Part shown: piece after piece, positions 24,724 to 44,895 of the stretch
Numbering within the stretch: position 1 is the stretch's first letter
How the letters are laid out: each line of letters begins with the position of its first letter
Sequence record: NC_047899.1
Reading direction: 5' to 3' (one strand)
Length of the DNA stretch: 44,895 nt
Origin: Escherichia phage VEc3
Notes under the pieces: model-generated
The model's input: only the letters and a program-made list of their open reading frames with translations
The model's database searches: none
Told to the model about the DNA's origin: nothing
Made by a program: the position numbers and the translations under genes

Positions 24724-24733
24724 AGGAGGATTC

Positions 24734-27873: not shown

Positions 27874-28595
27874 TGGCTATAGGTTCTGCCGTTATGGCTG
27901 GTATGTCTTCTATTGGTAGTATGTTTACAGGCAGCGGTGCAGCAGCCGCTGCTGGAGATGCTGCCGCAGGTGGCGGAGGCTTGCTAGGTTCTCTAGGTGG
28001 CTTCCTAAGCGGCTCTACTGCTGGCTTCTCTAATGCTGGGCTTCTTGGTGCTGGCCTTCAAGGTTTAGGCTTGATTGGTGATCTCTTTGGTGGAAGTGAT
28101 GAAGCCAAGGCAATGAAGAAAGCACAAGAAGAACAGTGGCGGCAGCAACTTATTGCTACACAAGAAGCATACAAAACAGTAGCAGATGCAGAGCGTTCTG
28201 CTGCTAAACAATATCATGCAGATGCAATAAGCAATCAGGCTTCACTACTACAGCAGCGAGCACAGGTTGCATTACTAGCAGGTGCTACTGGTACTGGTGG
28301 TAACTCTGTATCTTCTATGCTGAATGACTTAGCAGCAGAGGGCGGGAGGAACCAGAGTACAATTATTGATAACTATGAGAATCAGAAGATTAACTTCACC
28401 AATCAGCTTAAGTCTATCCAGCGAGGTGGACAGATGCAGATGCGTGAGTTTAAGAAGCCTTCTGCCGTGAGCACCTTGGTGCAAGGTATACCGAGTCTGG
28501 CATCTGCCTATGTAACAGGTAGTAAGTCCGGCATGGCTTTAGGTAAAGCTTTAACTGATTCTCGTACATATTCATCTGGAACAAGAGGTATTTAA
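27873..28595 (+). CDS. Internal virion protein, Gly/Ala-rich (gp13/14-like)
   Basis: 240 aa from ATG 27873 (AGGAGGG RBS); N-terminal glycine-rich hydrophobic region. Confidence 0.5.
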   Translation: MAIGSAVMAGMSSIGSMFTGSGAAAAAGDAAAGGGGLLGSLGGFLSGSTAGFSNAGLLGAGLQGLGLIGDLFGGSDEAKAMKKAQEEQWRQQLIATQEAYKTVADAERSAAKQYHADAISNQASLLQQRAQVALLAGATGTGGNSVSSMLNDLAAEGGRNQSTIIDNYENQKINFTNQLKSIQRGGQMQMREFKKPSAVSTLVQGIPSLASAYVTGSKSGMALGKALTDSRTYSSGTRGI

Positions 28596-31543
28596 TGGCA
28601 ATTGAGCGACAAGCAGTACAAGGCCTGCCACAAGTGCAGGCCACTTCTCCTAATGTCATGACCTTTGCACCTCAGCGAGTTGGAGGTGTGGAGGCTGGCG
28701 TAGCTTCTACCTCCGGTAGTCGATTTATCGAAGACCTTATTCGAGCAGCCAGTAGTGTAGCTGATGTAACCACTGGTATCCTTAATCAAAAGATTGAGGA
28801 AGATAAGGTTGTTCAAATGGAACGGGCATATAACGGATTAATGCCTTCTGAGGATGCAACTCGTGGTGGCGCTCGTGCTAACATGCTTGTCAAAGCTCAA
28901 CTGCTAGCTAATGATGAAGCAGCACGAATGAAAGACATGGCTACTCGTTTCCAAGGAACGGATGACGAGTGGACACAACTTATGGTTGACTCTCGTAATG
29001 AGATGCAGAATAAGCTGTTCCAGCAATACCCTGAGTTGCAAGGTGACAAAGATATTATGCGTATGGTCACTAATGTCTTCCAAGAACAGCAGCCTCAGAT
29101 TTGGGCTACACGAACCCAGCATAAACTTGACCGTGAACAAGCAGACCGTGAGGATACCTTTGACGGGCGAGTGGCTTCTACTTGGGATTCTAGTATTGAC
29201 CCTGAAGCCTCTGGCTATGCTTTACAGGAACGAATCCGCGAAGGTCTTACTCAAGGATTACTACCTGAACAGATGCACAAGAAGTTAGTCCAGCGAGCAA
29301 TTTCACTTGCACAAGGCGGTGATGTTAGCATGGCTGAAGCCCTGAAGTATGTGAAGGATGATAAGGGTGTTTCTGTTTATGCTAAGAATCCACAGCTTAT
29401 CACAGCCATCACTAGTGGTAATGCAGTTTGGGCTAGGAATAATGTAGCTGATGTAACTCGTATGTCTTTCGAAGTTAAAGAATCCTACCTTGCAGGTGAT
29501 TTAACTGATGAAGAATTGTTGGAACGAGCACAGCACATTAATAATCTGACAGGTAACTCTGTCTTCTCTAATCCAGAGCTAGAGGCACTGATGCGCCAAC
29601 GGGCTAAGCAGAATGCAGAGCTAGGTGCAATGCAGGATATGCGACGTGAGCTTTACTCCGACCGCCTGACTGGCTTCCAAGGTAAGACTGATAAAGAGAA
29701 GAAGGCTTACATTGATGTTATCAAACAGGATAGCCAACTTTATGCAGACCAGCAAATCAAACAACGTGGCTTGGACCCTTACAGTCAAGAGGCTGAAGCT
29801 ATTCGTGGTGCAGTGGAAGTGCAGCGCCTGCAATTCATGAACTCCAAAGGCTTAGTGGATGATACCTTTGAGTCTCGTATCAAAGCCATGGAATCTATGC
29901 TATCGCCTGAGCACTTTGCCAAGGGCGAACCACAGGAGTTGATGACTATTCGCCAGTTGTGGGAACAGTTGCCAGAAGAGAGCCGAGGTGTCTTTGGTGA
30001 CACGGTGAATGGCTATATGGATAACTACAACACTGCACTACAAATGGGAGAGACACCTCTGCAGGCTGCAAGGTTTGCGCGTGAAGCACAGCAGAAATTC
30101 TCTCGTACTGAGAAGGAAACCAAGAAGTTCAACTCAGCTATTGGAGATGCACTGGATGAGGTATCTGGTGCTGGCTGGTTTGATGGTAAAACCGAAGTGT
30201 CAGACTTAGGTAAAGCTATTGCGGAAGAAGAGTTACGAGCTAAGGCCAATATGTTGTGGTCTAGTGGTATGCGTAACATGGATTCTATCAAGAAGGCTTT
30301 AATTACTTGGGGCAATAAACGCTACACTCAAACAGAGGATGCAAAGACTTCCGGTGGCTATTTCATTAAAGGTGATTACACTTCTGCATCTGATATGCTT
30401 ATGTCAGTTGGGAAAGGCGTAAACCCTACCGATGTACCTCTGGCGCTTGGTAGGTATGTAGAAACACAGATGCCAGAATTGAAGAAGGAGCTTCAAGAGT
30501 GGGAAACTAAAGATGATATATACATTGATTACAATGAACAGAAAGGAACTTTTGTGATTCGTGCTGGTGCAGCAGGTCGCCCTCTTTCTGGAGTAATCCC
30601 TGTAACCTCTTTAGATACTACTTCACTACTAGATTCTGCCTATCAGAAGAAAGTAGAGGAACGAGATAAAGGCGAGTATGTCCACCCGTATCGTACAGAT
30701 ATTGGTGCACAAGAGCCTATGCCAGCTAAACCAACTGCCAAAGATATTGGTAAATTTGGACTAGCTAACTTCCTCATGTCTTCTGCTTTTGCTTCTGGTG
30801 AGAATCTGCCTTCTAACTTCGAGATTAACTATCGAGGTAATATGCAACAATTCTATGACAAGCTAGCTATGGATGAGAATAAAGATAAAGTTGGCTTTAA
30901 TAAGGCAACTGGAACCTTTACTCCATATAAAGACGCTCGCGGTGAGTCTATCGGTTACGGTCATTTCTTAACGGAAGAAGAGAAGCGAAACGGGTATATT
31001 AAGATTGGTGATGAACTAGTTCCCTATCGAGGGTCTATGTCTCAGCTTACAGAGAGCAAGGCTCGCGCTCTTATGGAGCAAGATGCCAAGAAGCATGTGC
31101 CTCCTACTCGTGACTGGAAGATTCCGTTTGACCAGATGCATCCTGCACAGCAACGTGGCTTGATGGATTTAACCTACAATTTAGGTAAAGGTGGAATCCA
31201 GAACTCACCGCGTGCTCTTGCTGCATTCAAAGCTGGTAAGCTTACGGAAGGCTTTATCGAAATGCTGGGCACTGCATCAAGTGAAGGTAAGCGTATCCCT
31301 GGTCTACTGAAGCGACGCGCTGAGGCATACAATATGGCATCTGCTGGTGGTGTGCCTAAGATTACCGAAGTGGAGACTCGTGAAGATGGCTCCATGTGGG
31401 TTAGGTTTGGTGGACCTATGCCAGCAGGTTCTGTCTCGGCATGGACTCATAAACGTATTGGCGCGGATGGTTGGTATCAGGTTTATGAGGCTGCACCTAC
31501 CAAGTTGGCTAAAGGTTCTAAGGTAGGTAAATTTAAGTTGTAG
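28595..31543 (+). CDS. Internal virion protein with C-terminal lysozyme-like domain
   Basis: 982 aa; C-terminal YKDARGESIGYGH and LMDLTYNLG blocks resemble T4-type lysozyme (YKDTEGYYTIGIGH). Confidence 0.7.
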   Translation: MAIERQAVQGLPQVQATSPNVMTFAPQRVGGVEAGVASTSGSRFIEDLIRAASSVADVTTGILNQKIEEDKVVQMERAYNGLMPSEDATRGGARANMLVKAQLLANDEAARMKDMATRFQGTDDEWTQLMVDSRNEMQNKLFQQYPELQGDKDIMRMVTNVFQEQQPQIWATRTQHKLDREQADREDTFDGRVASTWDSSIDPEASGYALQERIREGLTQGLLPEQMHKKLVQRAISLAQGGDVSMAEALKYVKDDKGVSVYAKNPQLITAITSGNAVWARNNVADVTRMSFEVKESYLAGDLTDEELLERAQHINNLTGNSVFSNPELEALMRQRAKQNAELGAMQDMRRELYSDRLTGFQGKTDKEKKAYIDVIKQDSQLYADQQIKQRGLDPYSQEAEAIRGAVEVQRLQFMNSKGLVDDTFESRIKAMESMLSPEHFAKGEPQELMTIRQLWEQLPEESRGVFGDTVNGYMDNYNTALQMGETPLQAARFAREAQQKFSRTEKETKKFNSAIGDALDEVSGAGWFDGKTEVSDLGKAIAEEELRAKANMLWSSGMRNMDSIKKALITWGNKRYTQTEDAKTSGGYFIKGDYTSASDMLMSVGKGVNPTDVPLALGRYVETQMPELKKELQEWETKDDIYIDYNEQKGTFVIRAGAAGRPLSGVIPVTSLDTTSLLDSAYQKKVEERDKGEYVHPYRTDIGAQEPMPAKPTAKDIGKFGLANFLMSSAFASGENLPSNFEINYRGNMQQFYDKLAMDENKDKVGFNKATGTFTPYKDARGESIGYGHFLTEEEKRNGYIKIGDELVPYRGSMSQLTESKARALMEQDAKKHVPPTRDWKIPFDQMHPAQQRGLMDLTYNLGKGGIQNSPRALAAFKAGKLTEGFIEMLGTASSEGKRIPGLLKRRAEAYNMASAGGVPKITEVETREDGSMWVRFGGPMPAGSVSAWTHKRIGADGWYQVYEAAPTKLAKGSKVGKFKL

Positions 31544-31560
31544 TATCTAACTCAAGGCTT

Positions 31561-31576
31561 GTCTCACATGTGAGAC
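31561..31576. repeat. 16-bp perfect palindrome GTCTCACATGTGAGAC (copy 6)
   Basis: Between the two large internal virion protein genes; extended stem then TCTTTAT. Confidence 0.8.
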
Positions 31577-31607
31577 AGGTCTTTATGATAGGCACTATGG
31601 AGGAATT

Positions 31608-34600
31608 ATGGAACAAGACATTAAGACTAATTGGGCTGGATATGTCCAGTCTACTCCTGAGCCGTTTTCTATTGAGGCGGCTCCGGTATCGGCTCCTACG
31701 ATACGCCAGCGTAATGAGTTACAAGAGCAAGTTCTTGAAGCTAAAGCTGATGCTGATATCTTAGGTGCTGTAGGTGCTGCCTTCCAGAAGGAGTGGTTGG
31801 CATTCGGAGGCAAGCGGTGGTATGACCGTGCCACTGCTGATTTCACACCTCAACCAGACTTCGAGATACAACCTGAGCAACGTGAAGCACTACGTTTCAA
31901 ATATGGTACAGATATGATGCAGACAATCACTGAGGGTGTTCGTTCTGAGGATGAATTGAACTTCCGTATTCAGAATGCTGATGAAGACCTTGAGCGCAAT
32001 AAGCGCATTGCTCAGGCTGGCTGGGTTGGCTCTGTGGCGACGATTGGCGCTGCTGTGCTTGACCCTGTGGGATGGGTTGCCTCTATTCCAACCGGTGGTG
32101 CCGCTAAAGTTGGACTCGTAGGCCGTGCTGTGCGTGGCGCTATCGCCGCTGGCGTAAGTAATGCCGCTATTGAATCCGTATTGGTCCAAGGTGACATGAC
32201 TCGTGATTTAGATGACATTATGGTAGCACTAGGCTCCGGTATGGCTATGGGTGGCGTTATTGGAGCTGTAGCGCGTGGTAGGGCCACTAAGCTCAGTGAG
32301 CAAGGAGATGACAGGGCTGCGAGCATTGTGCGCAGTGCAGACGCAGGGGACCGCTATGTGCGTGCTGTTGCTGATGATAGTATCGGTGCGATGCGTGTTA
32401 AGGGTGAAGAGTTACTCACTGAGGGTGCATTTGATATCTCTAGCAAAGGTGAAGATTTGCTGAAAACCCTACAGCGGGAAGGTAATGCAATTGATATGAC
32501 CCCTCGCCGCTGGGCCGGAACTCTGTCTGCCCTTGGTACTGTCGTACATTCCTCTCAGGATGCAAGTGTACGCGGCCTTGGTGCTCGCCTGTTTGAGTCC
32601 CCCCAAGGCTTAGGTATGCAGAAGGCATCTGCTAGTCTCATGCAGAATACTAACTTGAACCGTCTGAAATCTGCTGATATGAATCGTTTCAACGATGGGT
32701 TCGATTTATGGCTCAAAGAGAATAATATCAACCCGGTTGCAGGTCATACTAACTCTCACTATGTGCAGCAATATAATGAGAAGGTATGGGAAGCTGTACG
32801 CATCGGTATGGATGAGTCTACGCCTAAGTCTATCCGTATGGCAGCAGAGGGGCAGCAAGCTATGTATCGTGAAGCATTAGCATTACGTCAACGCTCTGGT
32901 GAAGCTGGGTTTGAAAAGGTTAAAGCAGATGATAAGTACATGCCTGATATTTTTGACAGTATGAAGGCTCGTCGTCAATTCAGTATGCACGATAAAGAGG
33001 ACATCATTGAGTTATTCTCTCGTGCATACCAGAATGGTTCTCGTAAGGTTCCAAAGGAAGTGGCTGATGATATTGCACGAGCACAAGTAAACCGCGTTGC
33101 TGATGCCACCTTGACCGGACAGCTTAGCTTTGAAAAGGCTATGTCTGGTCAAACCAAAGCAGAATATGAAGCACTAATGCGCAAAGCAGGCTTTAGTGAT
33201 GAAGAGATTGAAAAGATGGTAGAAGCTCTGGATAATAAAGAAACCAGAGATAATATCTCTAACCGAGCTAAGATGAGTTTAGGCTTAGATGTTACTCAAG
33301 AGTACAATGGCATTCGTATGCGTGACTTTATGAACACTAACGTGGAAGAGTTAACAGATAACTACATGAAGGAAGCGGCAGGTGGTGCTGCCTTGGCTCG
33401 TCAAGGTTTCTCTACCTATCAGGCTGCACTTAATGCAATTGATCTTGTAGAGCGAAATGCACGAAATGCAGCTAAAGATACAAAAGCACACGCACAATTT
33501 GAAGCGGAGTCGGCTAAGATCCGTCAATCAGAGCCTGATTACAAGAAGGCACAAGAGAAGATTGAAGAGTTAAAGAAGCGACTTAAATTGAAAGAGAAAG
33601 ATGAAGCAGCTGGTCTGGCTATTGATGAAGAAATCCGTCAGATGCGAGAAGGGCTTCGCTTGATTATGGGTAAATCTATCGATTCAAACCCACAAGATTT
33701 GTCTACTAAAATGCTGCGTCGTGGGCGTGACATTACAGGTGTACTTCGCTTAGGTCAGATGGGCTTCGCACAGCTAGGTGAACTTGCTAACTTCATGGGT
33801 GAGTTTGGTATTGCTGCCACCACTATGGCTTTAGGTAAGCAATTCCGCTTCACCTCTAAGGCGTTGCGTAATGGCGATGGCTTCTTTCGAGATAAGAATT
33901 TAGCTGAGGTTGAGCGAATGGTAGGTTACATTGGTGAAGACAACTGGCTGACAACTAAGGGTGCGCGTCCCGATGAGTTTGGTGATGTAACCACAGTGCG
34001 AGGTATGATGGCCCATTTTGACCAGTCCATGAACTCTATACGACGTGCTCAGACAAACCTATCCCTCTTCCGCATGGCACAGGGTTCTCTGGAGCGAATG
34101 ACCAATAGGCAAATAGCTTTGTCTTTCATTGACCACCTTGAAGGCAAGAAGATTATTCCTCAGAAGAAACTGGAGGAACTTGGTCTTACTCAGGAGTTCA
34201 TGACTAACCTACAGAAGCACTATGATGCTAACTCTAAAGGTTCTGGCTTGCTTGGCTTTGATACAATGCCTTATGCCATGGGTGAAACTTTAGCTAATGC
34301 TATTCGTCGTAAGTCAGGTCTAATTATCCAACGTAACTTCATTGGTGATGAAGGTATCTGGATGAACAAAGCACTAGGTAAGACATTTGCACAGCTTAAG
34401 TCATTCTCTCTTGTATCTGGTGAGAAGCAATTTGGTCGAGGGATTCGCCACGATAAAATTGGTCTTGCTAAGAAGACAGCTTATGGTTTTGCTTTGGGTT
34501 CAATAGTGTATGCGGCAAAAGCCTATGTGAACTCTATTGGTCGAGAAGACCAAGATGAATATTTGGAAGAGAAGTTATCGCCTAAAGGGTTGGCCTTTGG

Positions 34601-34916
34601 TGCAATGGGTATGATGAGTACAACTGCTGTATTTAGTCTAGGTGGAGATTTCTTAGGTGGCCTAGGTGTTCTACCTTCTGAGTTAGTACAATCCCGTTAT
34701 GAGGCTGGCTTTCAGACTAAGGGTTTGATAGACCAAATACCACTAGTAGGTGTTGGTCAAGATGCATATCGTTTAGCAGATTCTATAACTAAATACGCAG
34801 AGGGTGATACAGAAGGTGTAGATGTGGCACGTAGGGTTTTACGCTTAGTGCCTCTAGCTAATGTAATAGGAATCCAGAACGCATTGCGTTATGGCTTAGA
34901 TGAACTGGAGGATTAA
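31608..34916 (+). CDS. Large internal virion/ejection protein (gp16-like)
   Basis: 1102 aa; position and size. Confidence 0.7.
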   Translation: MEQDIKTNWAGYVQSTPEPFSIEAAPVSAPTIRQRNELQEQVLEAKADADILGAVGAAFQKEWLAFGGKRWYDRATADFTPQPDFEIQPEQREALRFKYGTDMMQTITEGVRSEDELNFRIQNADEDLERNKRIAQAGWVGSVATIGAAVLDPVGWVASIPTGGAAKVGLVGRAVRGAIAAGVSNAAIESVLVQGDMTRDLDDIMVALGSGMAMGGVIGAVARGRATKLSEQGDDRAASIVRSADAGDRYVRAVADDSIGAMRVKGEELLTEGAFDISSKGEDLLKTLQREGNAIDMTPRRWAGTLSALGTVVHSSQDASVRGLGARLFESPQGLGMQKASASLMQNTNLNRLKSADMNRFNDGFDLWLKENNINPVAGHTNSHYVQQYNEKVWEAVRIGMDESTPKSIRMAAEGQQAMYREALALRQRSGEAGFEKVKADDKYMPDIFDSMKARRQFSMHDKEDIIELFSRAYQNGSRKVPKEVADDIARAQVNRVADATLTGQLSFEKAMSGQTKAEYEALMRKAGFSDEEIEKMVEALDNKETRDNISNRAKMSLGLDVTQEYNGIRMRDFMNTNVEELTDNYMKEAAGGAALARQGFSTYQAALNAIDLVERNARNAAKDTKAHAQFEAESAKIRQSEPDYKKAQEKIEELKKRLKLKEKDEAAGLAIDEEIRQMREGLRLIMGKSIDSNPQDLSTKMLRRGRDITGVLRLGQMGFAQLGELANFMGEFGIAATTMALGKQFRFTSKALRNGDGFFRDKNLAEVERMVGYIGEDNWLTTKGARPDEFGDVTTVRGMMAHFDQSMNSIRRAQTNLSLFRMAQGSLERMTNRQIALSFIDHLEGKKIIPQKKLEELGLTQEFMTNLQKHYDANSKGSGLLGFDTMPYAMGETLANAIRRKSGLIIQRNFIGDEGIWMNKALGKTFAQLKSFSLVSGEKQFGRGIRHDKIGLAKKTAYGFALGSIVYAAKAYVNSIGREDQDEYLEEKLSPKGLAFGAMGMMSTTAVFSLGGDFLGGLGVLPSELVQSRYEAGFQTKGLIDQIPLVGVGQDAYRLADSITKYAEGDTEGVDVARRVLRLVPLANVIGIQNALRYGLDELED

Positions 34917-35878
34917 TGAGTTATACTTTCACAGAACATATAGCCAACGGTACGCAAGTAACCTATCCCTTTAGCTTTGCTGGTAGGGATAAAGGTTATC
35001 TTCGTGCCTCAGATGTGATAGTGGAGTCTCTTCAAGGTAACACTTGGATTGAGGTTACATCTGGCTGGCAACTAACTGGCACGCACCAGATTACTTTTGA
35101 TGTAGCACCAGTTGCAGGTTTGAAGTTCCGTATTCGAAGGGAAGTACAAAAGGAGTATCCATACGCTGAGTTTGACCGTGGTGTTACCTTGGATATGAAG
35201 TCTTTAAATGGTTCTTTCATTCATATACTGGAGATTACACAGGAGTTACTTGACGGGTTTTATCCAGAAGGATACTTCATTAAACAGAATGTAAGCTGGG
35301 GCGGCAATAAGATTACTGATTTGGCTGATGGCACAAATCCTGGAGATGCAGTAAATAAAGGGCAGCTTGATGCCATCGACAAGAAGCATACAGATTGGAA
35401 CGCCAAACAGGACATTGAGATTGCTGGCCTTAAGGCTGGTATGACTTCTGGTATTGCGCACAGTTCTATTCCTTGGTACACGATAGCCAAAGGTGGTGAG
35501 GTTTCCGTAAAACCACCTTATGAATTTCAAGATGCACTAGTTTCCCTTAATGGGGTATTGCAGCACCAAATTGTAGGCGCATACTCTATAAGCAACAACA
35601 CTATCACTTTCGCAGAGCCGCTTGTGGCGGGTACAGAGGTGTATGTGGTGATTGGTAGTCGTGTGGCTACATCTGAACCTACTATTCAGTCAGAGTTGAA
35701 CTTTGACTTAATAGAAGGCCAACAAGTAGTACAGATTGGCTCTGCATTTAAGTACATTGAGGTCTACCTTGATGGATTATTACAACCTAAACTTGCTTAT
35801 CAGGTAGACGGTGACATTGTTACTTTCTCAGAAAGAGTACCAGAATGCCGGATGACTGCTAAGATTATCACAGCATAA
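34916..35878 (+). CDS. Tail fiber/tailspike adaptor protein (gp17 N-domain-like)
   Basis: 320 aa; N-terminal region resembles the T7 gp17 tail-attachment domain. Confidence 0.7.
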   Translation: MSYTFTEHIANGTQVTYPFSFAGRDKGYLRASDVIVESLQGNTWIEVTSGWQLTGTHQITFDVAPVAGLKFRIRREVQKEYPYAEFDRGVTLDMKSLNGSFIHILEITQELLDGFYPEGYFIKQNVSWGGNKITDLADGTNPGDAVNKGQLDAIDKKHTDWNAKQDIEIAGLKAGMTSGIAHSSIPWYTIAKGGEVSVKPPYEFQDALVSLNGVLQHQIVGAYSISNNTITFAEPLVAGTEVYVVIGSRVATSEPTIQSELNFDLIEGQQVVQIGSAFKYIEVYLDGLLQPKLAYQVDGDIVTFSERVPECRMTAKIITA

Positions 35879-35887
35879 GGAGGTGGG

Positions 35888-36082
35888 ATGATTAACTCCG
35901 AACTGGTAGATAGTGGTGTGAAGCTTGCGCCACCTGCACTCGTATCAGGTGGGTACTTCCTCGGTATCAGTTGGGATAATTGGGTGTTAATAGCAACATT
36001 CATTTATACCGTGTTGCAAATTGGGGACTGGTTTTATAATAAGTTCAAGATTTGGAGGGAGAAGCGTGAGCGTACACAATAA
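35888..36082 (+). CDS. Holin (class II-like)
   Basis: 64 aa; two hydrophobic segments and charged C-terminus KIWREKRERTQ; AAGGAGG RBS. Confidence 0.55.
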   Translation: MINSELVDSGVKLAPPALVSGGYFLGISWDNWVLIATFIYTVLQIGDWFYNKFKIWREKRERTQ

Positions 36083-36365
36083 ACATGCAGCTACAGAGGA
36101 CGAGGTTGGCATTCTGCATGGTGCTATTACCAAAATCTTCAATAAGAAAGCACAGGCAATACTGGACACTATAGAAGAAGACCCTGATGCAGCATTACAT
36201 TTAGTGTCTGGTAAGGATATTGGTGCGATGTGTAAGTGGGTTCTTGATAACGGCATTACCGCCACACCTGCTGCACAGCAGGAAGAGTCCAAGTTATCTA
36301 AGCGCCTCAAGGCTATCCGAGAGGCATCCAGTGGTAAGATAATTCAGTTTACAAAAGAGGAGTGA
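36066..36365 (+). CDS. Terminase small subunit (gp18-like), start uncertain
   Basis: GTG 36066 with GGAGGG RBS preferred; track ATG 36021 is the alternative; position between holin and terminase large subunit. Confidence 0.45.
   Translation: MSVHNKHAATEDEVGILHGAITKIFNKKAQAILDTIEEDPDAALHLVSGKDIGAMCKWVLDNGITATPAAQQEESKLSKRLKAIREASSGKIIQFTKEE
36157..36179 (+). promoter_or_regulatory. Phage RNAP promoter embedded in the terminase small subunit CDS
   Basis: GGCAATACTGGACACTATAGAAGAAG; +1 G at 36174; encodes ...AILDTIEED. Confidence 0.55.
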
Positions 36366-36366
36366 T

Positions 36367-36810
36367 ATGCATAGATGGTGTGAATCTCAAGGTTATACCA
36401 TCTTACCTTCTGGTGTCATCCTTTCAAAGGGTGGCACCCCTCTCAAACCATTCAAGGCGGGTAGGGGTTATTTAGCAGTTAAAATTAAAAATAAAGAAGG
36501 TAAATGGCGTAATGTCTATGTTCATCAATTAGTGGCTTATAAGTATTTACCTAAAACTAATAATGAAGTAAACCACAAAGACGGCGATAAGCACAACAAT
36601 GATGTTAGCAACTTGGAGTGGGTAACAAGAAGCGAGAATAACTATTTAAAATGCAATGGAAATGATAGGAGTGCCTTAAATAGCTATTTAGCAAGATTAA
36701 AAGATTGCTTCTTGCAAGGTAAGGGTGTAGCAGAAACCGCTAGACTTACTGGTAAAAGTGAACCAAGAGTTTCTTCTCTCTTTAAGGAGTGGCGAAATGG
36801 CAAAGGCTAG
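36367..36810 (+). CDS. HNH homing endonuclease inserted between the terminase genes
   Basis: 147 aa; VNHKDGDKHNNDVSNLEWVTRSENN motif; strongly AT-rich; paralogous in design to the HNH at 6396. Confidence 0.85.
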   Translation: MHRWCESQGYTILPSGVILSKGGTPLKPFKAGRGYLAVKIKNKEGKWRNVYVHQLVAYKYLPKTNNEVNHKDGDKHNNDVSNLEWVTRSENNYLKCNGNDRSALNSYLARLKDCFLQGKGVAETARLTGKSEPRVSSLFKEWRNGKG

Positions 36811-38695
36811 AGAATCACAGGCAGAGGCATTAAAGCGGTGGGAAAACCTTAAAGAACTACAAGACACTTTTAAATATACAGCGGAAGGTTTGCTTCTCTT
36901 TGCAGATACAGTTATTCATAACTTAATTGCAGGCAACCCTCATCTGATTCGTATGCAGGCGGATATCTTGAAGTTCCTATTTTACGGACACAAGTACCGC
37001 CTCATCGAAGCGCCTCGTGGTATCGCTAAGACAACACTATCAGCAATCTATACGGTATTCCGTATTATTCATGAACCGCATAAGCGTATCATGGTTGTGT
37101 CCCAAAACGCCAAGCGAGCAGAGGAAATCGCAGGTTGGGTAGTTAAAATCTTCCGTGGCTTAGACTTTCTTGAGTTTATGCTGCCGGATATCTACGCTGG
37201 GGACCGTGCATCCGTTAAGGCGTTTGAGATTCATTACACCCTACGTGGTAGTGATAAGTCTCCTTCTGTATCCTGTTACTCAATCGAAGCAGGTATGCAG
37301 GGTGCTCGTGCTGATATTATTCTAGCGGATGACGTAGAGTCGATGCAGAATGCTCGTACGGCAGCGGGCCGTGCCTTGCTTGAGGAACTGACTAAGGAGT
37401 TTGAATCTATCAACCAGTTTGGGGATATCATTTACCTTGGTACACCTCAGAACGTAAACTCTATCTACAACAACCTACCTGCTCGTGGTTACTCTGTTCG
37501 TATCTGGACTGCGCGTTACCCTTCAGTAGAGCAAGAGCAATGTTATGGCGACTTCCTTGCACCTATGATTGTTCAAGATATGAAGGACAACCCAGCACTT
37601 CGCTCAGGGTACGGGTTGGATGGTAATAGTGGTGCACCTTGTGCCCCTGAAATGTATGATGATGAAGTCCTGATTGAGAAGGAAATCTCTCAGGGTGCTG
37701 CTAAGTTCCAGCTTCAGTTCATGCTTAACACTCGCATGATGGATGCTGACAGATACCCATTACGCCTGAACAATCTAATCTTCACCTCGTTTGGTACAGA
37801 GGAAGTCCCTGTGATGCCTACGTGGAGTAATGATTCCATAAACATCATTGGTGATGCACCTAAGTACGGTAACAAGCCTACGGATTTCATGTACAGACCT
37901 GTAGCTCGCCCATACGAATGGGGTGCTGTCTCCCGCAAGATTATGTATATTGACCCTGCGGGTGGTGGTAAGAACGGAGATGAGACGGGTGTAGCCATCG
38001 TATTCCTGCACGGCACATTCATTTATGTGTATCAGTGCTTTGGTGTACCTGGCGGATACCGAGAGTCGTCCCTGAATCGCATTGTGCAGGCCGCAAAGCA
38101 GGCGGGTGTTAAAGAGGTATTCATTGAGAAGAACTTTGGTCATGGCGCGTTTGAGGCGGTAATTAAGCCGTACTTTGAACGAGAGTGGCCTGTAACTCTG
38201 GAAGAAGATTACGCCACCGGACAGAAAGAATTGCGTATCATTGAGACGCTGGAGCCGCTCATGGCAGCCCATAGGCTTATCTTCAATGCAGAGATGGTGA
38301 AGTCAGACTTTGAGTCGGTACAGCACTATCCGCTTGAACTACGCATGTCCTACAGTCTTTTCAATCAAATGTCGAACATAACGATTGAGAAGAACAGCCT
38401 ACGGCACGATGACCGCCTAGACGCCCTGTATGGTGCTATACGGCAATTAACTTCTCAGATAGACTATGACGAGGTTACACGGATTAATCGCCTCAGAGCG
38501 CAGGAGATGCGAGATTACATCCATGCTATGAACACACCTCATCTACGCAGGGCAATGCTATATGGGGATTACGGTACTGAGCGAAGAGTGACCAACACTT
38601 CCGTAGCGATGCAGCAGCGAGTTTACGGGCAGAGCTACCGAAATAAATCGGCAAGCAGAAATACACTTTCTGCAAGGATTTCAAGGACTTATTAA
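36797..38695 (+). CDS. Terminase large subunit (gp19-like)
   Basis: Walker A-like GIAKTT, YLGTPQ, FMLN, HDDRLDAL blocks as in T7 gp19; ATG 36797 with AAGGAG RBS preferred over track start 36758. Confidence 0.92.
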   Translation: MAKARESQAEALKRWENLKELQDTFKYTAEGLLLFADTVIHNLIAGNPHLIRMQADILKFLFYGHKYRLIEAPRGIAKTTLSAIYTVFRIIHEPHKRIMVVSQNAKRAEEIAGWVVKIFRGLDFLEFMLPDIYAGDRASVKAFEIHYTLRGSDKSPSVSCYSIEAGMQGARADIILADDVESMQNARTAAGRALLEELTKEFESINQFGDIIYLGTPQNVNSIYNNLPARGYSVRIWTARYPSVEQEQCYGDFLAPMIVQDMKDNPALRSGYGLDGNSGAPCAPEMYDDEVLIEKEISQGAAKFQLQFMLNTRMMDADRYPLRLNNLIFTSFGTEEVPVMPTWSNDSINIIGDAPKYGNKPTDFMYRPVARPYEWGAVSRKIMYIDPAGGGKNGDETGVAIVFLHGTFIYVYQCFGVPGGYRESSLNRIVQAAKQAGVKEVFIEKNFGHGAFEAVIKPYFEREWPVTLEEDYATGQKELRIIETLEPLMAAHRLIFNAEMVKSDFESVQHYPLELRMSYSLFNQMSNITIEKNSLRHDDRLDALYGAIRQLTSQIDYDEVTRINRLRAQEMRDYIHAMNTPHLRRAMLYGDYGTERRVTNTSVAMQQRVYGQSYRNKSASRNTLSARISRTY

Positions 38696-38716
38696 TTACT
38701 GGACACTATAGAAGGA
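38694..38716 (+). promoter_or_regulatory. Phage RNAP promoter (AATTACTGGACACTATAGAAGGA)
   Basis: Consensus core; +1 G at 38711; leader contains hairpin GGGTGTAC-TCCT-GTACACCC. Confidence 0.7.
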
Positions 38717-38860
38717 AGGCCCAGATAATAAGAGAAAATAATAGGTAATATATAGGTTAACCTAGGTTATATAGGTATGCCTTAGTATGGGTGTACTCCT
38801 GTACACCCTATTCATTACTACCTTACTACCTTACTATATTTACATAATAGGAGAGAGACA

Positions 38861-39139
38861 ATGGCTAATGATTATAGTAGTCAACCATTAACAGGTAAGT
38901 CTAAGAGAAAGCAGGTACAACTTGTAAGTGAAGAACTAATGCTTCCGGTAATCAAAAAAGAGGAAGCTAGTAAGAAAAGCAATGTCATTAATGATGCCAC
39001 CAAATCAGGTAAACAGAAAGGGGCCATGGTGTGCCTTGAAGCGGAAGGTGGTGTATTGAAGATTGCTATCGCGGTTGATGGCAAAGAAGATTCAGAGTGG
39101 AAGTTAGTAACAGTGGGAACCACTGTTACCCCAGTTTAA
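38861..39139 (+). CDS. Small protein, paralog A (92 aa)
   Basis: Shares SGKQKGAMV-LE...IA-A...W...TP with the adjacent ORF; strong RBS. Confidence 0.6.
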   Translation: MANDYSSQPLTGKSKRKQVQLVSEELMLPVIKKEEASKKSNVINDATKSGKQKGAMVCLEAEGGVLKIAIAVDGKEDSEWKLVTVGTTVTPV

Positions 39140-39157
39140 GAGAAGGAGGAAGATTAC

Positions 39158-39448
39158 ATGGCTGAATATGGTACTACAGGTTCTGTTACGGGTCAGGCTT
39201 TTAGAGTGAAAGCAGTACAAACTGTTGCAACGGCAATCCCGATGCCTGTTGTTAAAGAAGAAGACCTTAAGAGTAAAGATCACCCTATCAACATCAAACA
39301 TTTATCAGGTAAACAGAAAGGTGCAATGGTTGCTCTTGAGAAAAAGAACACAACCTTACATATTGCTGTTGCACATGGTAGTGAACCAACAGACCCTTGG
39401 TATGTAACTAGCATGGAATCGCTCGCTGTCACTCCAGCAGGTGGATAA
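39158..39448 (+). CDS. Small protein, paralog B (96 aa)
   Basis: Paralogous to 38861-39139; AAGGAGG RBS. Confidence 0.6.
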   Translation: MAEYGTTGSVTGQAFRVKAVQTVATAIPMPVVKEEDLKSKDHPINIKHLSGKQKGAMVALEKKNTTLHIAVAHGSEPTDPWYVTSMESLAVTPAGG

Positions 39449-39450
39449 TA

Positions 39451-39795
39451 ATGCTTAACAAATACTTCAAGCGCCGGGAGTTCGCTTGCCGTTGTGGGTG
39501 CGGTACATCCACTGTTGATGCTGAATTACTACAGGTAGTCACAGATGTGCGTGAGCACTTTGGTTCTCCTGTAGTTATCACTTCGGGGCACCGCTGTGCT
39601 AAGCATAATGCTAATGTAGGAGGGGCTAAGAACTCCATGCATCTTACTGGTAAGGCTGCTGACATTAAGGTGTCTGGTGTTGGCCCAATGGAGGTACGTG
39701 CATACCTCTGCAATAAATACCATGATAAGTACGGTATTGGTGCTTATCCTACTTTTACCCATATCGACGTTAGAGATAACAAAGCAAGATGGTAA
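39451..39795 (+). CDS. Endolysin, zinc peptidase M15 family
   Basis: 114 aa; SGHRCAKHN...SMHLTGKAADI...H-D pattern typical of M15 zinc peptidases. Confidence 0.8.
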   Translation: MLNKYFKRREFACRCGCGTSTVDAELLQVVTDVREHFGSPVVITSGHRCAKHNANVGGAKNSMHLTGKAADIKVSGVGPMEVRAYLCNKYHDKYGIGAYPTFTHIDVRDNKARW

Positions 39796-39903
39796 GATGC
39801 ATTGAATGGTGTGAACGCATGGTTGCTAAGGCTTCAGAGGAAGGTAATTATGAAGATTGGCAGAACTACTCAACTTTATTAGCACAATGGAAAGGGAGGT
39901 GCA

Positions 39904-40053
39904 ATGAAAAAGCTGTTCAAATCTAAGAAGGTTGTAGGTGCACTAGTTGCATTGGCAATTGCTCTTGTTTCTGTAGGTCTTGGTGTAGACCTTGGCTCTG
40001 GCACGGAATCCTCTGTGACAGATGTGGTCTGCCAAGTGATCACCTGTGAATAA
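39904..40053 (+). CDS. Small membrane protein (49 aa)
   Basis: AAGGGAGG RBS; N-terminal TM helix VVGALVALAIALVSVGLGV; C-terminal CxxxxC. Confidence 0.45.
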   Translation: MKKLFKSKKVVGALVALAIALVSVGLGVDLGSGTESSVTDVVCQVITCE

Positions 40054-40340: not shown

Positions 40341-40369
40341 TACATAGCTTTATGTATCAGTGTCTTACG

Positions 40370-40392
40370 ATTTACTGGACAATATAGAAGAG
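40370..40392 (+). promoter_or_regulatory. Phage RNAP promoter variant (ATTTACTGGACAATATAGAAGAG)
   Basis: Single C to A change at -5; +1 G at 40387; upstream of tailspike 1. Confidence 0.55.
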
Positions 40393-40471
40393 ATAAGATA
40401 GCGCCGTTCTTTTGAGCGGCCTATTACTAGCCAATCTTCATAGGGAGGGTTGGAAAGTAATAGGAGATAGC

Positions 40472-42370
40472 ATGGCTAAATTAACCAAACCTAATACTGA
40501 AGGAATCTTGCATAAAGGACAATCTTTGTATGAGTACCTTGATGCGAGAGTTTTAACATCAAAGCCGTTTGGTGCTGCAGGTGACGCCACTACTGATGAT
40601 ACGAAGGTTATAGCTGCTTCATTAAACTCTCAGAAAGCTGTCACAGTCTCAGATGGTGTATTCTCTAGCTCTGGTATTAATAGTAATTACTGTAACTTAG
40701 ACGGTAGAGGTAGTGGCGTGCTAAGTCACCGTTCCAGTACAGGTAACTACTTAGTATTTAACAATCTACGTGCAGGTCGCTTAAGTAATATTACGGTAGA
40801 AAGTAATAAGGCGACTGATACAACTCAGGGACAGCAGGTATCTCTTGCTGGTGGAAGTGATGTTACTGTAAGTGACGTTAACTTCTCAAACGTTAAAGGT
40901 ACTGGTTTCAGTTTAATCGCATACCCTAATGATGCGCCACCTGATGGACTTATGATTAAAGGCATTCGAGGTAGCTATTCAGGCTATGCTACTAATAAGG
41001 CAGCCGGATGCGTACTTGCTGACTCCTCAGTTAACTCCCTCATAGATAACGTCATTGCTAAGAACTACCCTCGGTTCGGAGCAGTAGAGTTGAAAGGTAC
41101 AGCCAGTTACAACATAGTCAGTAATGTTATAGGGGCAGATTGCCAGCATGTAACTTACAACGGCACTGAAGGGCCAATAGCTCCTTCTAATAACCTTATC
41201 AAGGGGGTGATGGCTAATAACCCTAAGTATGCAGCGGTTGTTGCAGGCAAAGGAAGTACGAACTTAATCTCAGACGTGCTAGTAGATTACTCAACTTCTG
41301 ATGCTAGGCAGGCTCATGGTGTTACCGTAGAAGGGTCTGATAACGTCATAAATAATGTGCTTATGTCAGGATGTGATGGTACTAACTCTTTAGGACAAGT
41401 GCAGACTGCTACAATTGCACGCTTTATAGGTACAGCTAATAACAACTATGCGTCTGTATTTCCTAGCTACAGTGCTACAGGTGTTATTACTTTCGAATCC
41501 GGCTCTACCCGTAACTTCGTAGAGGTAAAGCACCCTGGCAGGAGAAACGACCTTCTCAGTTCTGCTAGTACTATTGACGGTGCAGCTACTATTGACGGCA
41601 CTAGTAATAGTAACGTAGTGCACGCACCTGCCTTAGGGCAGTACATAGGTAGTATGTCAGGTAGGTTCGAATGGCGGATTAAGTCCATGTCACTCCCTTC
41701 AGGCGTTCTTACTTCTGCTGATAAGTACAGAATGCTTGGAGATGGTGCTGTGTCATTAGCTGTAGGTGGGGGCACTTCTTCTCAAGTTCGCCTATTTACT
41801 TCTGGTGGTACTTCTCGGACAGTGTCCCTCACCAACGGTAACGTGCGTCTTTCTACCAGTAGCACAGGCTTTTTGCAGTTAGGTGCTGATGCAATGACCC
41901 CAGACAGTACTGGTACATACGCATTAGGTTCCGCCAGTCGAGCATGGTCTGGCGGTTTTACTCAAGCAGCATTCACTGTTACCTCAGATGCTCGGTGTAA
42001 AACAGAACCTCTTACTATCTCAGATGCCTTACTGGATGCTTGGTCTGAAGTTGACTTTGTGCAGTTTCAGTATTTGGATCGTGTTGAGGAGAAGGGTGCA
42101 GACTCAGCTAGATGGCACTTTGGCATCATCGCTCAGCGAGCTAAGGAGGCTTTCGAACGTCACGGTATAGATGCACATCGCTATGGCTTCTTGTGCTTCG
42201 ACAGTTGGGATGATGTATACGAGGAAGATGCCAATGGCTCTCGTAAACTGATTACACCAGCAGGTTCCCGCTACGGTATTCGTTACGAGGAAGTACTGAT
42301 ATTAGAGGCTGCGTTGATGCGGCGGACTATTAAGCGTATGCAGGAAGCACTAGCTGCCCTTCCTAAGTAA
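40472..42370 (+). CDS. Tailspike 1 with C-terminal intramolecular chaperone domain; probable capsule depolymerase
   Basis: 632 aa from ATG 40472 (AGGAG RBS); Ser/Thr/Gly/Asn-rich beta-helix-like body; C-terminal SDARCK...WHFGIIAQRAKEAF...GIRYEEVLILEA matches the self-cleaving chaperone module of endosialidase/K5-lyase tailspikes (by recall). Confidence 0.8.
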   Translation: MAKLTKPNTEGILHKGQSLYEYLDARVLTSKPFGAAGDATTDDTKVIAASLNSQKAVTVSDGVFSSSGINSNYCNLDGRGSGVLSHRSSTGNYLVFNNLRAGRLSNITVESNKATDTTQGQQVSLAGGSDVTVSDVNFSNVKGTGFSLIAYPNDAPPDGLMIKGIRGSYSGYATNKAAGCVLADSSVNSLIDNVIAKNYPRFGAVELKGTASYNIVSNVIGADCQHVTYNGTEGPIAPSNNLIKGVMANNPKYAAVVAGKGSTNLISDVLVDYSTSDARQAHGVTVEGSDNVINNVLMSGCDGTNSLGQVQTATIARFIGTANNNYASVFPSYSATGVITFESGSTRNFVEVKHPGRRNDLLSSASTIDGAATIDGTSNSNVVHAPALGQYIGSMSGRFEWRIKSMSLPSGVLTSADKYRMLGDGAVSLAVGGGTSSQVRLFTSGGTSRTVSLTNGNVRLSTSSTGFLQLGADAMTPDSTGTYALGSASRAWSGGFTQAAFTVTSDARCKTEPLTISDALLDAWSEVDFVQFQYLDRVEEKGADSARWHFGIIAQRAKEAFERHGIDAHRYGFLCFDSWDDVYEEDANGSRKLITPAGSRYGIRYEEVLILEAALMRRTIKRMQEALAALPK

Positions 42371-42377
42371 GCAACAG

Positions 42378-42400
42378 GCAGTGCGTAAGCACTGCTTTTC
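42378..42400 (+). terminator. Hairpin plus T-run between the two tailspike genes
   Basis: GCAGTGC-GTAA-GCACTGC followed by TTTTC. Confidence 0.55.
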
Positions 42401-42455
42401 ACGCAACTTTTCTTAAAGGTTATCATGGTGGTAGCCTTTCAGAAAAGGAGGTTAC

Positions 42456-44159
42456 ATGCTTCAAAGATTAGGCTCCAAATTAGTCTCATCTAAAGTTTCA
42501 CACTATGGTGTTTCTAGGGTACTATCAGATAAACTAGATGAAATAGTTACACCATTAGATATTAATAGTGGCAATTCATTAGTTCAAGCTATGGCTGCAT
42601 CTGGTAATAGGTTCTCCGTGTTTAACTCAACAGATACCTTCAAGATTACAGTAGGCGATGGTGGAGACTATTCAACTTTGTACGAAGCCATAGAGGGTGC
42701 TTGCAAAATGCGACCTACCTATAAAGAAGGTAAGAGCTATTGTGAAATCTCTCTTAAAAGAGGCTTTATATTAAGAGAGCAATTGGAGTTCACGGGAGGT
42801 TTTGACTTATCTTGGATTAAGATAACATCTGAAGATGAAGTAGTGTATGCAGATACTTCGTCCTTTACAAAGAAAGTAAGACATTACTATGAGTATAAGT
42901 ACCTGTTCCTATTTACAGAAGGTACAAAGAGTCCTATCTTCTCTATATTGATTCAAGAAAACAGAGATGATAGTGATGTTTGTGCCTTTATGATTACAAG
43001 GTTTGCAGAGCTTAATTTCTGGCCTGGATCTGGTGCACGTAAGTTTTATGTGGGTGTAGATTCTCAGTTTGGATGCTGGATTAAAGGCTACCACACTGGG
43101 TCTGCACCGGACAAGACTGCTGTAGATAAATATCAACCACCGGGGTACTTCCTCTGCGACTTTTCTGATAGCAGATATAATGCCATCATGGCTTACTCTA
43201 GTTATGTACACCTTCCTTGTAGTAAGTTTGATAGAAGTGGTAATAGTTTTAATCAACCCTCTGTTACATGTATTTATAATACAGTTGCACACTTTCAAGG
43301 ATCTTCTGCCAAAGATTGCTACATAGGTTGGAATATACGATATGGAGCACATGTTAACATGCGAGATCATCAAACTACCAACTGTACATACAGAGGTCTT
43401 ACTTGTATACATGGAGTCTTTGTAGATGCAAGACGTCACGATGTGGAAGGGACAGACATACCGACAAGCGGTAAGGTATTAAATCCAGAAGAGCAGAATG
43501 GCTTCTATGGGTGTTTAACAGGTGTGCAAGTAGACGGTGCAACTATTGTAGATCTAGCAGGGAATGATATGCGAAACTGTGGTACTACTATTAAATGCGA
43601 TAACGGTGCTGTGGTTTCAGCTAAAGGATTGGACGTATCTGGAGCTAAGACTATGGTTTTCCAATGCCAAGGTGGCTCAACTGTAGCTTGTCCTAGGTTA
43701 TGGGCAGACAACATCAAACAATTATGTGTGTTACGTTATGACTCAAAAGTAACAAGCCGTTGGGCTACAATAACTACACATACTAAGTTTGAGCAGCTTA
43801 GTCGTTTCTGTGATGCAGATATGTCAAGTCATTTAACTCTATCTGACTCCAAGATAGATGGAGATATAGCATTCTTTGCTGGTAACTCATCTACTATCTC
43901 TATCTCTGGTTCAAGTACGGTTAAAGTAAGAGCCTTTAGATCATTTACTGGTTCTAAGGTTACTCTATCTGGTATTACTTATAACCCTGAGTATGCTAAG
44001 GCTGTATCACCAGAAGAACTACAATTTAGGATTTCTCAAGGAGGGATTATAGCAATGAACCCTATCACCATCTCCGATGGGTCTGTGCCTATCTTGTCTA
44101 AACCACGTAATACCTTATCAGATGCAGGTATTATCTTCTCTGCGGTAGGTAATATCTGA
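42456..44159 (+). CDS. Tailspike 2 / second receptor-binding protein, Cys-rich, AT-rich
   Basis: 567 aa; AAGGAGG RBS; terminal position as in two-tailspike SP6/K1-5-like phages; no domain recognised. Confidence 0.55.
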   Translation: MLQRLGSKLVSSKVSHYGVSRVLSDKLDEIVTPLDINSGNSLVQAMAASGNRFSVFNSTDTFKITVGDGGDYSTLYEAIEGACKMRPTYKEGKSYCEISLKRGFILREQLEFTGGFDLSWIKITSEDEVVYADTSSFTKKVRHYYEYKYLFLFTEGTKSPIFSILIQENRDDSDVCAFMITRFAELNFWPGSGARKFYVGVDSQFGCWIKGYHTGSAPDKTAVDKYQPPGYFLCDFSDSRYNAIMAYSSYVHLPCSKFDRSGNSFNQPSVTCIYNTVAHFQGSSAKDCYIGWNIRYGAHVNMRDHQTTNCTYRGLTCIHGVFVDARRHDVEGTDIPTSGKVLNPEEQNGFYGCLTGVQVDGATIVDLAGNDMRNCGTTIKCDNGAVVSAKGLDVSGAKTMVFQCQGGSTVACPRLWADNIKQLCVLRYDSKVTSRWATITTHTKFEQLSRFCDADMSSHLTLSDSKIDGDIAFFAGNSSTISISGSSTVKVRAFRSFTGSKVTLSGITYNPEYAKAVSPEELQFRISQGGIIAMNPITISDGSVPILSKPRNTLSDAGIIFSAVGNI

Positions 44160-44308
44160 TGCCACTGATCAAGTCAGTTAAGCAAAGTGCTGTACGCCAG
44201 AACACAGAAGAGCTTATTCAATCAGGACGTGACCCTAAGCAGGCTTATGCCATTGCCAAGGATGTACAACGTCGTGCCATGAAGAAACCTTCTGCATCTT
44301 CTGCGTAA
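44159..44308 (+). CDS. Small basic protein (49 aa)
   Basis: ATG overlaps the tailspike 2 stop (TGATG); below track cutoff. Confidence 0.35.
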   Translation: MPLIKSVKQSAVRQNTEELIQSGRDPKQAYAIAKDVQRRAMKKPSASSA

Positions 44309-44376
44309 GCAGGTTAATATCTTAGTGTACACAAGGGCAGACTTAGGTTTGCTCTTAGTGTACCAAAGGAGGTCAC

Positions 44377-44532
44377 ATGATTTGGATTCATACGTATGGT
44401 GTAGGGCCGTTCCAGAAGAATGTACTCAGGAAGATTCATGAGTCCGAGGAATCAGCCTTAGCCAGCCAGAAGGTTCTCGGTGGAACCGTTCAGTGTTACA
44501 TGAAGAAACCACAAGGTTTCGACTTAGTGTAA
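44377..44532 (+). CDS. Small ORF (51 aa), hypothetical
   Basis: AAGGAGG RBS upstream of ATG 44377; last ORF before the right DTR. Confidence 0.35.
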   Translation: MIWIHTYGVGPFQKNVLRKIHESEESALASQKVLGGTVQCYMKKPQGFDLV

Positions 44533-44591
44533 CCATAGGTGATCACAAAGTAACCAAAGTCAAAATTTTGATGTAGGCGTGTGTGAGCTCT

Positions 44592-44895
44592 CTCGCCCTC
44601 GCCCTCGCCGGGTTGTCCCCATAGGGTGGCCTGAGGGAATCCGTCGAAGACGGGCAGGGCTGATGTACTCCTTGTACTAGCTTAGTAGTACACAAGGGCA
44701 GGCCGTACTAGTTAGCTGGTACAGCCTAGTCTTTGCTCATGTACTAGCAAGGTGGAACGCTGGAGAGCGCCTAGGACGGCCTAGGGCACGCCTTAGTGTT
44801 GGACAAGGTGAATGCCTTAGTGAAGCCTCTTAGTGCATTCCTGAGGCCATTCAGGGCGTTTATGAGGTATTGACAGGGTGGGCGTGGGTGGGCTA
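44592..44895. repeat. Right direct terminal repeat (DTR), 304 bp
   Basis: Exact copy of 1-304 at the window end; typical of T7-like linear genomes. Confidence 0.95.

Follow-up and report, generated by a model that had tools for sequence, protein, structure and literature searches.

The closest described relatives of the locus discussed here are the two-spike phages K1-5, K5, K1E and SP6. A cassette model was reportedly proposed for K1-5, K5 and K1E by Scholl et al. in 2001, and the same work is said to have noted two symmetric elements in an intergenic region of 85 bases that lacks a promoter. In this article, we will focus on the second tailspike gene (tailspike 2) of Escherichia phage VEc3 (NC_047899.1), whose 44,895 nucleotides (nt), hereafter called the window, make up a complete linear genome of a Vectrevirus (K1-5-like) podophage with a two-tailspike system. 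We consider it very probable that this phage, which holds a K5 lyase in its first tailspike slot, gained the beta-helix tailspike of its second slot by recombination at conserved flanks. The arrangement as such is the known modular two-spike system of K1-5, K5, K1E and SP6; the novelty here is limited to the allele, a beta-helix module that is rare and absent from the phage records searched, and to the quantification of its recent exchange.

The attachment of these spikes to the virion has been described in molecular detail by cryo-electron microscopy of K1E and K1-5, where gp46 docks on the adaptor gp37 through the peptide MAKLTKP and gp47 through MIQRLGSSLVK (PMC6872550, PMC6966330). The same docking scheme is found in SP6 (PMC6872550, PMC6966330), the adaptor role of gp37 being that of Leiman 2007 as summarised in PMC6872550, and the two spikes that SP6 carries on gp37 give it two lipopolysaccharide serogroup specificities (PMC6966330). 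According to more recent work, genomic variability in Vectreviruses has hotspots at the genes of the receptor-binding proteins. An earlier note on the window, made from its letters alone, had already proposed that its second tailspike gene is a horizontally acquired receptor-binding module lying at a swap site.

A recently exchanged cassette between conserved flanks

We searched 50,697 phage records at the DNA level. The body of the tailspike 2 open reading frame (ORF) has a match in none of them (0/50,697). Its 5' flank, made of the 85-nt spacer and the first 5-10 codons, is conserved in 109 phage records at 92-100% identity, and its 3' flank, the start of gp48, is conserved in 118. The edges are sharp, since the homology shared with other Vectreviruses breaks off after the first 15-29 nt of the ORF (42470-42484) and begins again exactly at the gp48 ATG. 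Between these two borders, the DNA varies from record to record, and the junction-to-junction distance in paired records falls into at least nine length classes spanning 1614 to 2498 nt (1614, 1743, 1788 for the window, ~1808, 1862, 1888, 2114, 2246 and 2498 nt). The slot-2 proteins of K5, LL11, K1-5 and the window are mutually unrelated and have only an N-terminal M(L/I)QRL.. in common. All of this is what one expects of the swap site that the earlier note had suggested.

The closest protein relative of tailspike 2, P0001, has 567 amino acids (aa) and is 96% identical at the aa level. It is encoded on L005, a 43-kb SP6-like phage contig from the Salmonella enterica assembly GCA_050564925.1, and was also found in two sequencing runs. 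The L005 backbone is 86-89% identical to the window, against 97.4% nt identity in the block 42379-44379, which starts at hairpin 1 of the spacer. The contrast is as marked at synonymous sites (dS, synonymous substitutions per synonymous site, window against L005):

tailspike 2: dS 0.045
gp48: dS 0.06
terminase: dS 0.89
endolysin: dS 0.60

With a dS of 0.045 for the cassette and 0.89 for the terminase, the cassette is younger than its carrier genomes by a factor of more than ten, and the horizontal acquisition that had been proposed from composition thus receives independent backing. L005 has the same cassette as the window (97.6% nt, 96% aa) and an identical spacer; it differs from it in its slot 1, which is occupied by a 111-aa stub instead of a K5 lyase, and in having kept D296, E332, R358 and N380. 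This suggests that the cassette circulates between E. coli- and Salmonella-associated phages. In L005, the slot-1 stub lies at 5598-5933, as in K1E, and the tailspike 2 cassette at 6001-7704. In L007, a more distant SP6-like contig, tailspike 2 has a 65%-identical homologue at 6001-7689 with a G+C (GC) content of 0.49; this contig has no gene at the slot-1 position and a 1173-aa ORF upstream, after the terminase (976-4497), which makes for a different layout of the same module. As for the mechanism, the beta-helix tailspike would have entered slot 2 by homologous recombination between the conserved flanks, that is, the spacer with about ten codons on one side and gp48 on the other.

The tailspike region and its genome

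The features on which the rest of this article relies are the following, the promoter scores coming from a weight matrix built on the 13 phage promoters of the genome, whose own sites score at least 25 bits:

34916-35878, + strand: adaptor at the gp37 position, 320 aa (PF03906 Phage_T7_tail, residues 3-153, 27.3 bits for a cut-off of 25.2)
40369-40392, + strand: last SP6-type phage promoter, upstream of tailspike 1 (GATTTACTGGACAATATAGAAGAG, 33.6 bits on the promoter matrix)
40472-42370, + strand: tailspike 1, K5 lyase (KflA), 626 of 632 aa identical to K1-5 gp46
42376-42399, + strand: hairpin 1 followed by TTTT, from folding (core stem 42378-42384 / 42389-42395, loop GTAA)
42407-42447, + strand: hairpin 2, from folding (7 + 11 base pairs, 1x1 internal loop, 3-nt loop)
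42447-42451, + strand: Shine-Dalgarno sequence GGAGG, 4 nt 5' of the ATG, read from the sequence and invariant in the aligned junctions
42456-42488, + strand: docking undecapeptide MLQRLGSKLVS, the conserved 5' cassette edge (8 of 11 residues as in the K1-5 gp47 peptide MIQRLGSSLVK)
42456-44159, + strand: tailspike 2, 567 aa, predicted right-handed beta-helix (exchanged body from ~42485 to 44158)
44159-44308, + strand: gp48 homologue, 49 aa, the conserved 3' cassette edge (phrog_2423; 92-96% identity in 118 records)
44377-44532, + strand: gp49 homologue, 51 aa, the final gene ahead of the terminal repeat (phrog_3955; K1-5 annotation)

All genes lie on the + strand, with 13 SP6-type phage promoters, and the genome is bounded by direct terminal repeats of 300 nt (1-300 = 44592-44891). 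Over 20 kb, the window is 93-98% identical to the Vectrevirus genomes KMB47, KMB14, AAPEc6 and K1-5, the region 20000-40000 being 94.5% identical to K1-5. The tailspike region runs from the promoter at 40369 through tailspike 1, the 85-nt spacer, tailspike 2, gp48 and gp49. This gene order is that of K1-5, PSK8, PST_H2 and LL11, with tailspike 2 placed directly between the gp46-position tailspike and gp48, as is the second spike of SP6/K1-5-like phages (Molineuxvirinae); the ATG of gp48 and the stop codon of tailspike 2 overlap (ATCTGATG). The 567-aa ORF on the + strand is there as the earlier note had described it, yet it is not the terminal ORF that the note took it for, as the gp48 and gp49 homologues and then the 300-nt terminal repeat lie 3' of it.

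In slot 1, the protein begins with MAKLTKP, the exact gp46 docking heptapeptide, and matches the C-terminal Peptidase_S74 chaperone domain (PF13884) over residues 505-565. A K5 lyase occupies this slot in more than 30 Vectrevirus records. Its body (40600-42356, nt 129-1885 of tailspike 1) is also found at 96% identity, from codon 43 onward, in T7-like Kayfunavirus genomes of ~39-40 kb. This sharing points to a slot-1 module that also moves between phage subfamilies, swapping only its N-terminal attachment part.

Comparison with the described two-spike phages

K1-5 has in common with the window the genus-level backbone, the slot-1 gene (99% aa identity), the gp37 adaptor, the downstream gp48 and gp49, the two-hairpin spacer of 85 nt, at 92% identity, and the docking-peptide pattern (8/11). 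The difference is in slot 2, where K1-5 encodes an endosialidase of 811 aa and the window a protein of 567 aa, the two being unrelated past about the first 35 residues. Unlike K1-5 gp47, the protein of the window has neither a beta-propeller nor a C-terminal Peptidase_S74 chaperone domain. When it was tested as a possible endosialidase, no Pfam match was obtained, tblastn returned no endosialidase and the similarity to gp47 was confined to the N-terminal part. K5, LL11 and other Vectreviruses resemble the window in having, next to the K5 lyase, a second spike that varies, and their spacer is 100% identical over the first 100 nt. The slot-2 protein of K5, known from a partial ORF 3' of kflA (Y10025.2), is unrelated to that of the window beyond MLQRL, and that of LL11, a 570-aa 'glycoside hydrolase' spike, has only the N-terminal peptide in common with it. 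On account of this unrelated K5 ORF, an identity of the window with K5 was rejected. SP6 gp46/gp47 (Zindervirus) has the same junction architecture, with a hairpin 1 stem that differs by a compensatory pair (GCAGCGC/GCGCTGC); SP6 belongs, however, to another genus, its spikes are O-antigen-directed and neither is homologous to the window's at the sequence level.

A homologous beta-helix module is found elsewhere, in phrog_5662, in the P22-like coliphages JEP4, HZ41 and HEMP4 and in phage 92CQ, with 47% identity over residues 21-567, and it is Cys-rich and AT-rich there too. These tailspikes attach by a P22 head-binding domain or by other adaptors of 60-400 aa, and not by an 11-residue peptide. 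JEP4 had also been considered as a T7-like phage, and this was rejected, JEP4 being P22-like; the paper describing it gives a host range by phylogroup only and does not report a receptor. Finally, the receptor-binding protein gp15 of the Staphylococcus phage Andhra (PDB 8egr) bears a resemblance at the fold level only, with 12-14% sequence identity, and functions on a Gram-positive host in a different virion context.

Base composition of the tailspike 2 gene

The composition of the genome is not uniform, and tailspike 2 is its synonymous AT-rich extreme. Its GC content is 0.393 for a genome value of 0.450, which is the lowest among all windows of 1704 nt and bears out the AT-richness that had been claimed for it (z -2.46; 0.09% of the 1704-nt windows are as low, and only the early region near 350-800 equals it). 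The GC content at third codon positions (GC3) is ~0.295, and no other ORF of 100 aa or more has so low a value. We compared it with the value expected when the codons of each gene's own protein are redrawn from the codon usage of the remaining genome. The expected GC3 of tailspike 2 is then 0.402 +/- 0.020, so that the observed value has a z of -5.3; for the 16 remaining genes with 300 codons or more, z takes values from -2.7 to +4.3. Because of this, the compositional anomaly can be taken as real and mostly synonymous: ~4.6 of the 5.7 points of GC deficit are synonymous and do not come from the amino-acid content. As to the different codon choice that had been noticed, the direction holds, with a preference for A/T-ending codons, but the size is only moderate: at a G per codon of 0.197, the codon-usage distance is the top value among genes of more than 480 codons, but higher values are found in the capsid gene (0.413) and in some of the shorter genes.

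The gene was also said to be Cys-rich, and it does encode 17 cysteines (3.0%), the highest count of the genome, the other large virion proteins having 0-1.2%. This is a trait of the family, with 2.0-3.8% in 21 homologues and C96, C353 and C375 invariant. AT-richness goes further in the related modules of P22-like coliphages (GC3 0.215), and across carriers, the GC content of the module goes from 0.37 (P22-like JEP4, phage 92CQ) to 0.535 (a T7-like contig). With its 0.39, the module of the window stands near the AT-rich coliphage versions, which fits a recent import from that pool; its low GC3 would then be the mark of the donor gene pool, still undrifted towards the composition of this genome.

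Fold, family and attachment of tailspike 2

AlphaFold, run on a 22-sequence alignment, predicts for tailspike 2 the right-handed beta-helix that had been anticipated, and with high confidence (predicted local distance difference test, pLDDT, 91.5; predicted template modelling score, pTM, 0.87). The model is a long series of three-strand rungs in which only the first 16 residues are disordered. At the sequence level, the protein has no match in Pfam, NCBIfam or the PDB sequences, nor in the curated beta-helix/pectate-lyase families, where its remote homologue P0021 comes near PF13229 with 25.8 bits (cut-off 25.9). It does match the tail-fibre family phrog_5662 with an E-value of 4.4e-302, its residues 1-567 falling on positions 168-728 of the 729-position profile, so that the N-terminal 167 positions, the adaptor part, are missing from it.

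An exhaustive search among 1.84 billion representative proteins gave relatives with E<=1e-30 in 13 clusters, which makes this a small family. No relative turned up when bacterial species were scanned with one genome each, and IMG/VR contained prophage-type relatives only (45-56% identity) and no closer cassette. In the homologues (37-65% identity), a module of ~545 aa stands behind a T7 tail-fibre N, P22 head-binding, TSP1/Gp66 N or tail-collar domain, and some of them have an appended GDSL esterase; in all, five kinds of virion adaptor precede the module among its homologues, which thus travels between types of phage. In the window, the 11-residue peptide takes the place of the adaptor domain, and its residues M, Q, R, L, S, L and V do not vary among four aligned proteins.

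The gp47-type docking peptide, the gp37 adaptor encoded by the same genome and the predicted beta-helix fold together favour the receptor-binding module that had been proposed. By comparison with K1E and K1-5, tailspike 2 would trimerise and dock via its undecapeptide onto the C-terminal site of gp37, next to the K5 lyase. From this position, its target would be a second surface polysaccharide, which it would bind and probably also cleave, offering the phage a second entry route. Its presence in the virion, its trimeric state, its enzymatic activity and its receptor are all presumed here from the sequence, and a second host specificity is what the analogy with K1-5 and SP6 would lead one to expect. 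Since a near-identical cassette is found in a phage assembled from Salmonella cultures, the receptor may be common to E. coli and Salmonella. In the model, several of the family-invariant residues (D117, D235, R295, R303, H319, R326 and D371) take part in pairs at one-rung spacing (R295/H319, R303/R326, also H305/H328), and such stacked basic ladders would be suited to an acidic sugar.

The spacer and the transcription of tailspike 2

The spacer that precedes tailspike 2 folds as two hairpins (-39.3 kcal/mol, z -6.2). Hairpin 1 is the hairpin with a T-run that had been seen at the junction, GCAGTGC-GTAA-GCACTGC at 42378-42395 followed by TTTT at 42396-42399. Hairpin 2, at 42407-42447, is stronger and had gone unmentioned; it ends on the G with which the Shine-Dalgarno sequence begins. 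We compared the junction in ten distinct versions, drawn from Vectrevirus and Zindervirus as well as from SP6-like contigs that are more remote. In hairpin 1, compensatory changes are seen among relatives at 3 of the 6 pairs (AU>GC, GC>CG and UA>CG/GC), and L007 has a different stem at this position. Such covariation indicates that the structure of hairpin 1 is under selection. The stem of hairpin 2 is invariant in 9/10 of the junctions; close relatives have substitutions in the 3-nt loop only, and in L007 the stem changes by two compensatory double substitutions. An Rfam search of the spacer matched no family.

The U-tract 3' of hairpin 1 is not conserved: it reads TTTC, TTTA or TTCT in relatives and is absent in L007. 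On the + strand of the window, hairpin 1 does not pass the terminator scan rule (a U-rich tract of at least 5 of 8) because of its only 4 T, its stem being one that qualifies. We thus rejected hairpin 1 as a canonical intrinsic terminator. Our best guess is that hairpin 1 might act as a partial terminator or as a stabiliser beside an RNase III-type processing site, which would be hairpin 2, and that the same conserved spacer DNA might also serve as the 5' recombination joint.

The claim that tailspike 2 has no phage promoter of its own stands, the best matrix score within 40401-44560 being 1.8 bits. The same scan to 44560 leaves tailspike 2, gp48 and gp49 without a promoter beyond the last one at 40369. 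The phage RNA polymerase that starts there, or at promoters further upstream, would read through the spacer into tailspike 2, which would be translated from its own GGAGG. Co-transcription of tailspike 2 from the 40369 promoter is thus what we infer. More tentatively, and with one and the same modest degree of belief for two non-exclusive readings taken jointly, the covarying two-hairpin spacer might be an undescribed cis-acting RNA element, perhaps an RNase III processing/stabilising site that governs how much of spike 1 is made relative to spike 2 and is also a portable recombination joint group-wide, and the module might represent enzymes of a so far uncharacterised family that degrade polysaccharides.

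Alternative explanations

Several observations weigh against the acquisition of a second, functional spike as we have set it out, and each has its own alternative explanation. Low GC is frequent in slot-2 genes, K1-5 gp47 (0.416) and the slot 2 of PSK8 (0.410) being also under the genome mean, and composition alone cannot date a transfer. The AT-richness might then not be foreign, and could come from selection on the gene (acting on mRNA structure, amino-acid content or the speed of translation) or be something that tailspike genes have in general, a view that the mildly negative GC3 z of the tail genes at 25471-34916 (-2.0 to -2.7) would also suit. We find this very improbable, as the deficit is chiefly synonymous and double any other long gene's deviation, as the GC content of the module changes with the carrier phage, so that the fold does not dictate it, and as the dS contrast proves the exchange independently of composition. 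A second concern is the protein itself, to which no catalytic class can be assigned from Pfam, NCBIfam or the PDB. It differs from P0001 by 24 amino acids and 41 nucleotides. Among these changes, D296Y (codon 296, 43341-43343) replaces, in a W-N-x-R-D-G motif, an Asp found in 21/21 homologues, and E332G, R358Q and N380K hit positions conserved in 17/20. P0001 keeps the consensus at all of these positions, so the four changes are derived in the lineage of the window only, and all alter charge. The dN/dS (ratio of non-synonymous to synonymous substitution rates) against L005 is 0.42 for tailspike 2 and 0.023 for the terminase. On this evidence, the enzyme may be altered or dead, and the four radical changes could stand for a specificity shift, for relaxed constraint on a spike that is unneeded on K5 hosts or for sequencing error. 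One can even imagine that tailspike 2 is decaying or catalytically dead and that the phage lives on K5 hosts through its lyase, with slot 2 relaxed and holding at most a binding-only or structural spike. Slot 1 has decayed to a 111-aa stub in K1E and L005, and either tailspike of K1-5 can reportedly be inactivated independently of the other, which goes in the same direction. We nevertheless hold such a decay to be unlikely, for the ORF is intact over its 567 codons, with no frameshift or stop, the dN/dS is under 1, a ratio based on 41 nucleotide differences only is noisy, and charge changes in a binding groove are also expected from a specificity shift.

The last difficulty comes from the spacer, as an efficient termination at hairpin 1 would leave tailspike 2 poorly expressed. 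Under this explanation, hairpin 1 and its T-run would be the working terminator of the tailspike 1 message, and tailspike 2 would be expressed by read-through only, at a much lower level. The GC-rich stem of 7-9 base pairs followed by UUUU has the looks of a terminator, its covariation shows it to be selected, and the annotators of the LL11 record label this very element as a terminator. Against it stand the tract of just 4 U, unconserved in relatives and lost in L007, and the terminator rule that the + strand fails. In addition, there is no downstream promoter, and yet K1-5 virions are reported with six copies of each spike (PMC6966330). The adjacent hairpin 2, an interrupted hairpin of 18 base pairs and hence about the length of an RNase III substrate, would rather point to processing or stabilisation. 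A working terminator is therefore doubtful in our eyes, and we retain the reading in which the K5-lyase phage acquired its beta-helix tailspike by recombination at the conserved flanks and transcribes it through the spacer.

Other features of the genome

Some observations lie outside the tailspike cassette. The palindrome TGTCTCACATGTGAGACA is present in 8 copies (632, 6147, 6329, 7548, 9116, 10260, 14893 and 31560). Some of them are just 5' of phage promoters (6165, 6350 and 14924), and others come after genes and are followed by a T-rich tail (9097-9142, 10241-10286 and 31541-31586); they are probably terminators or RNA-processing hairpins. Between the terminase and the endolysin, the ORFs 38861-39139 (92 aa) and 39158-39448 (96 aa) are adjacent paralogues with a common 36-nt repeat (39004 / 39304), and the pair looks like a tandem duplication. 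The stretch between gp48 and gp49, which is nearly invariant among relatives, contains CTTAGTGTAC twice (44321-44330 and 44354-44363) as well as the motif TACACAAGGGCAG at 44327-44339, which recurs within the terminal repeat (44687-44699 and 96-108). These repeat motifs could be regulatory or packaging-related.

Meaning for the two-spike phages

The understanding of two-spike systems is unchanged by this finding, which provides a clean and quantified case of the cassette model, with one K5-lyase backbone and many second spikes. The dS contrast (0.045 vs 0.89) gives the exchange an age relative to that of the backbone, and the edges of the exchange can be located within a few codons. Tailspike 2 is itself a candidate depolymerase against a surface polysaccharide of E. 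coli or Salmonella. The conserved flanks, that is, the spacer with the undecapeptide on one side and gp48 on the other, mark a place at which a new spike could be put in to retarget such phages.

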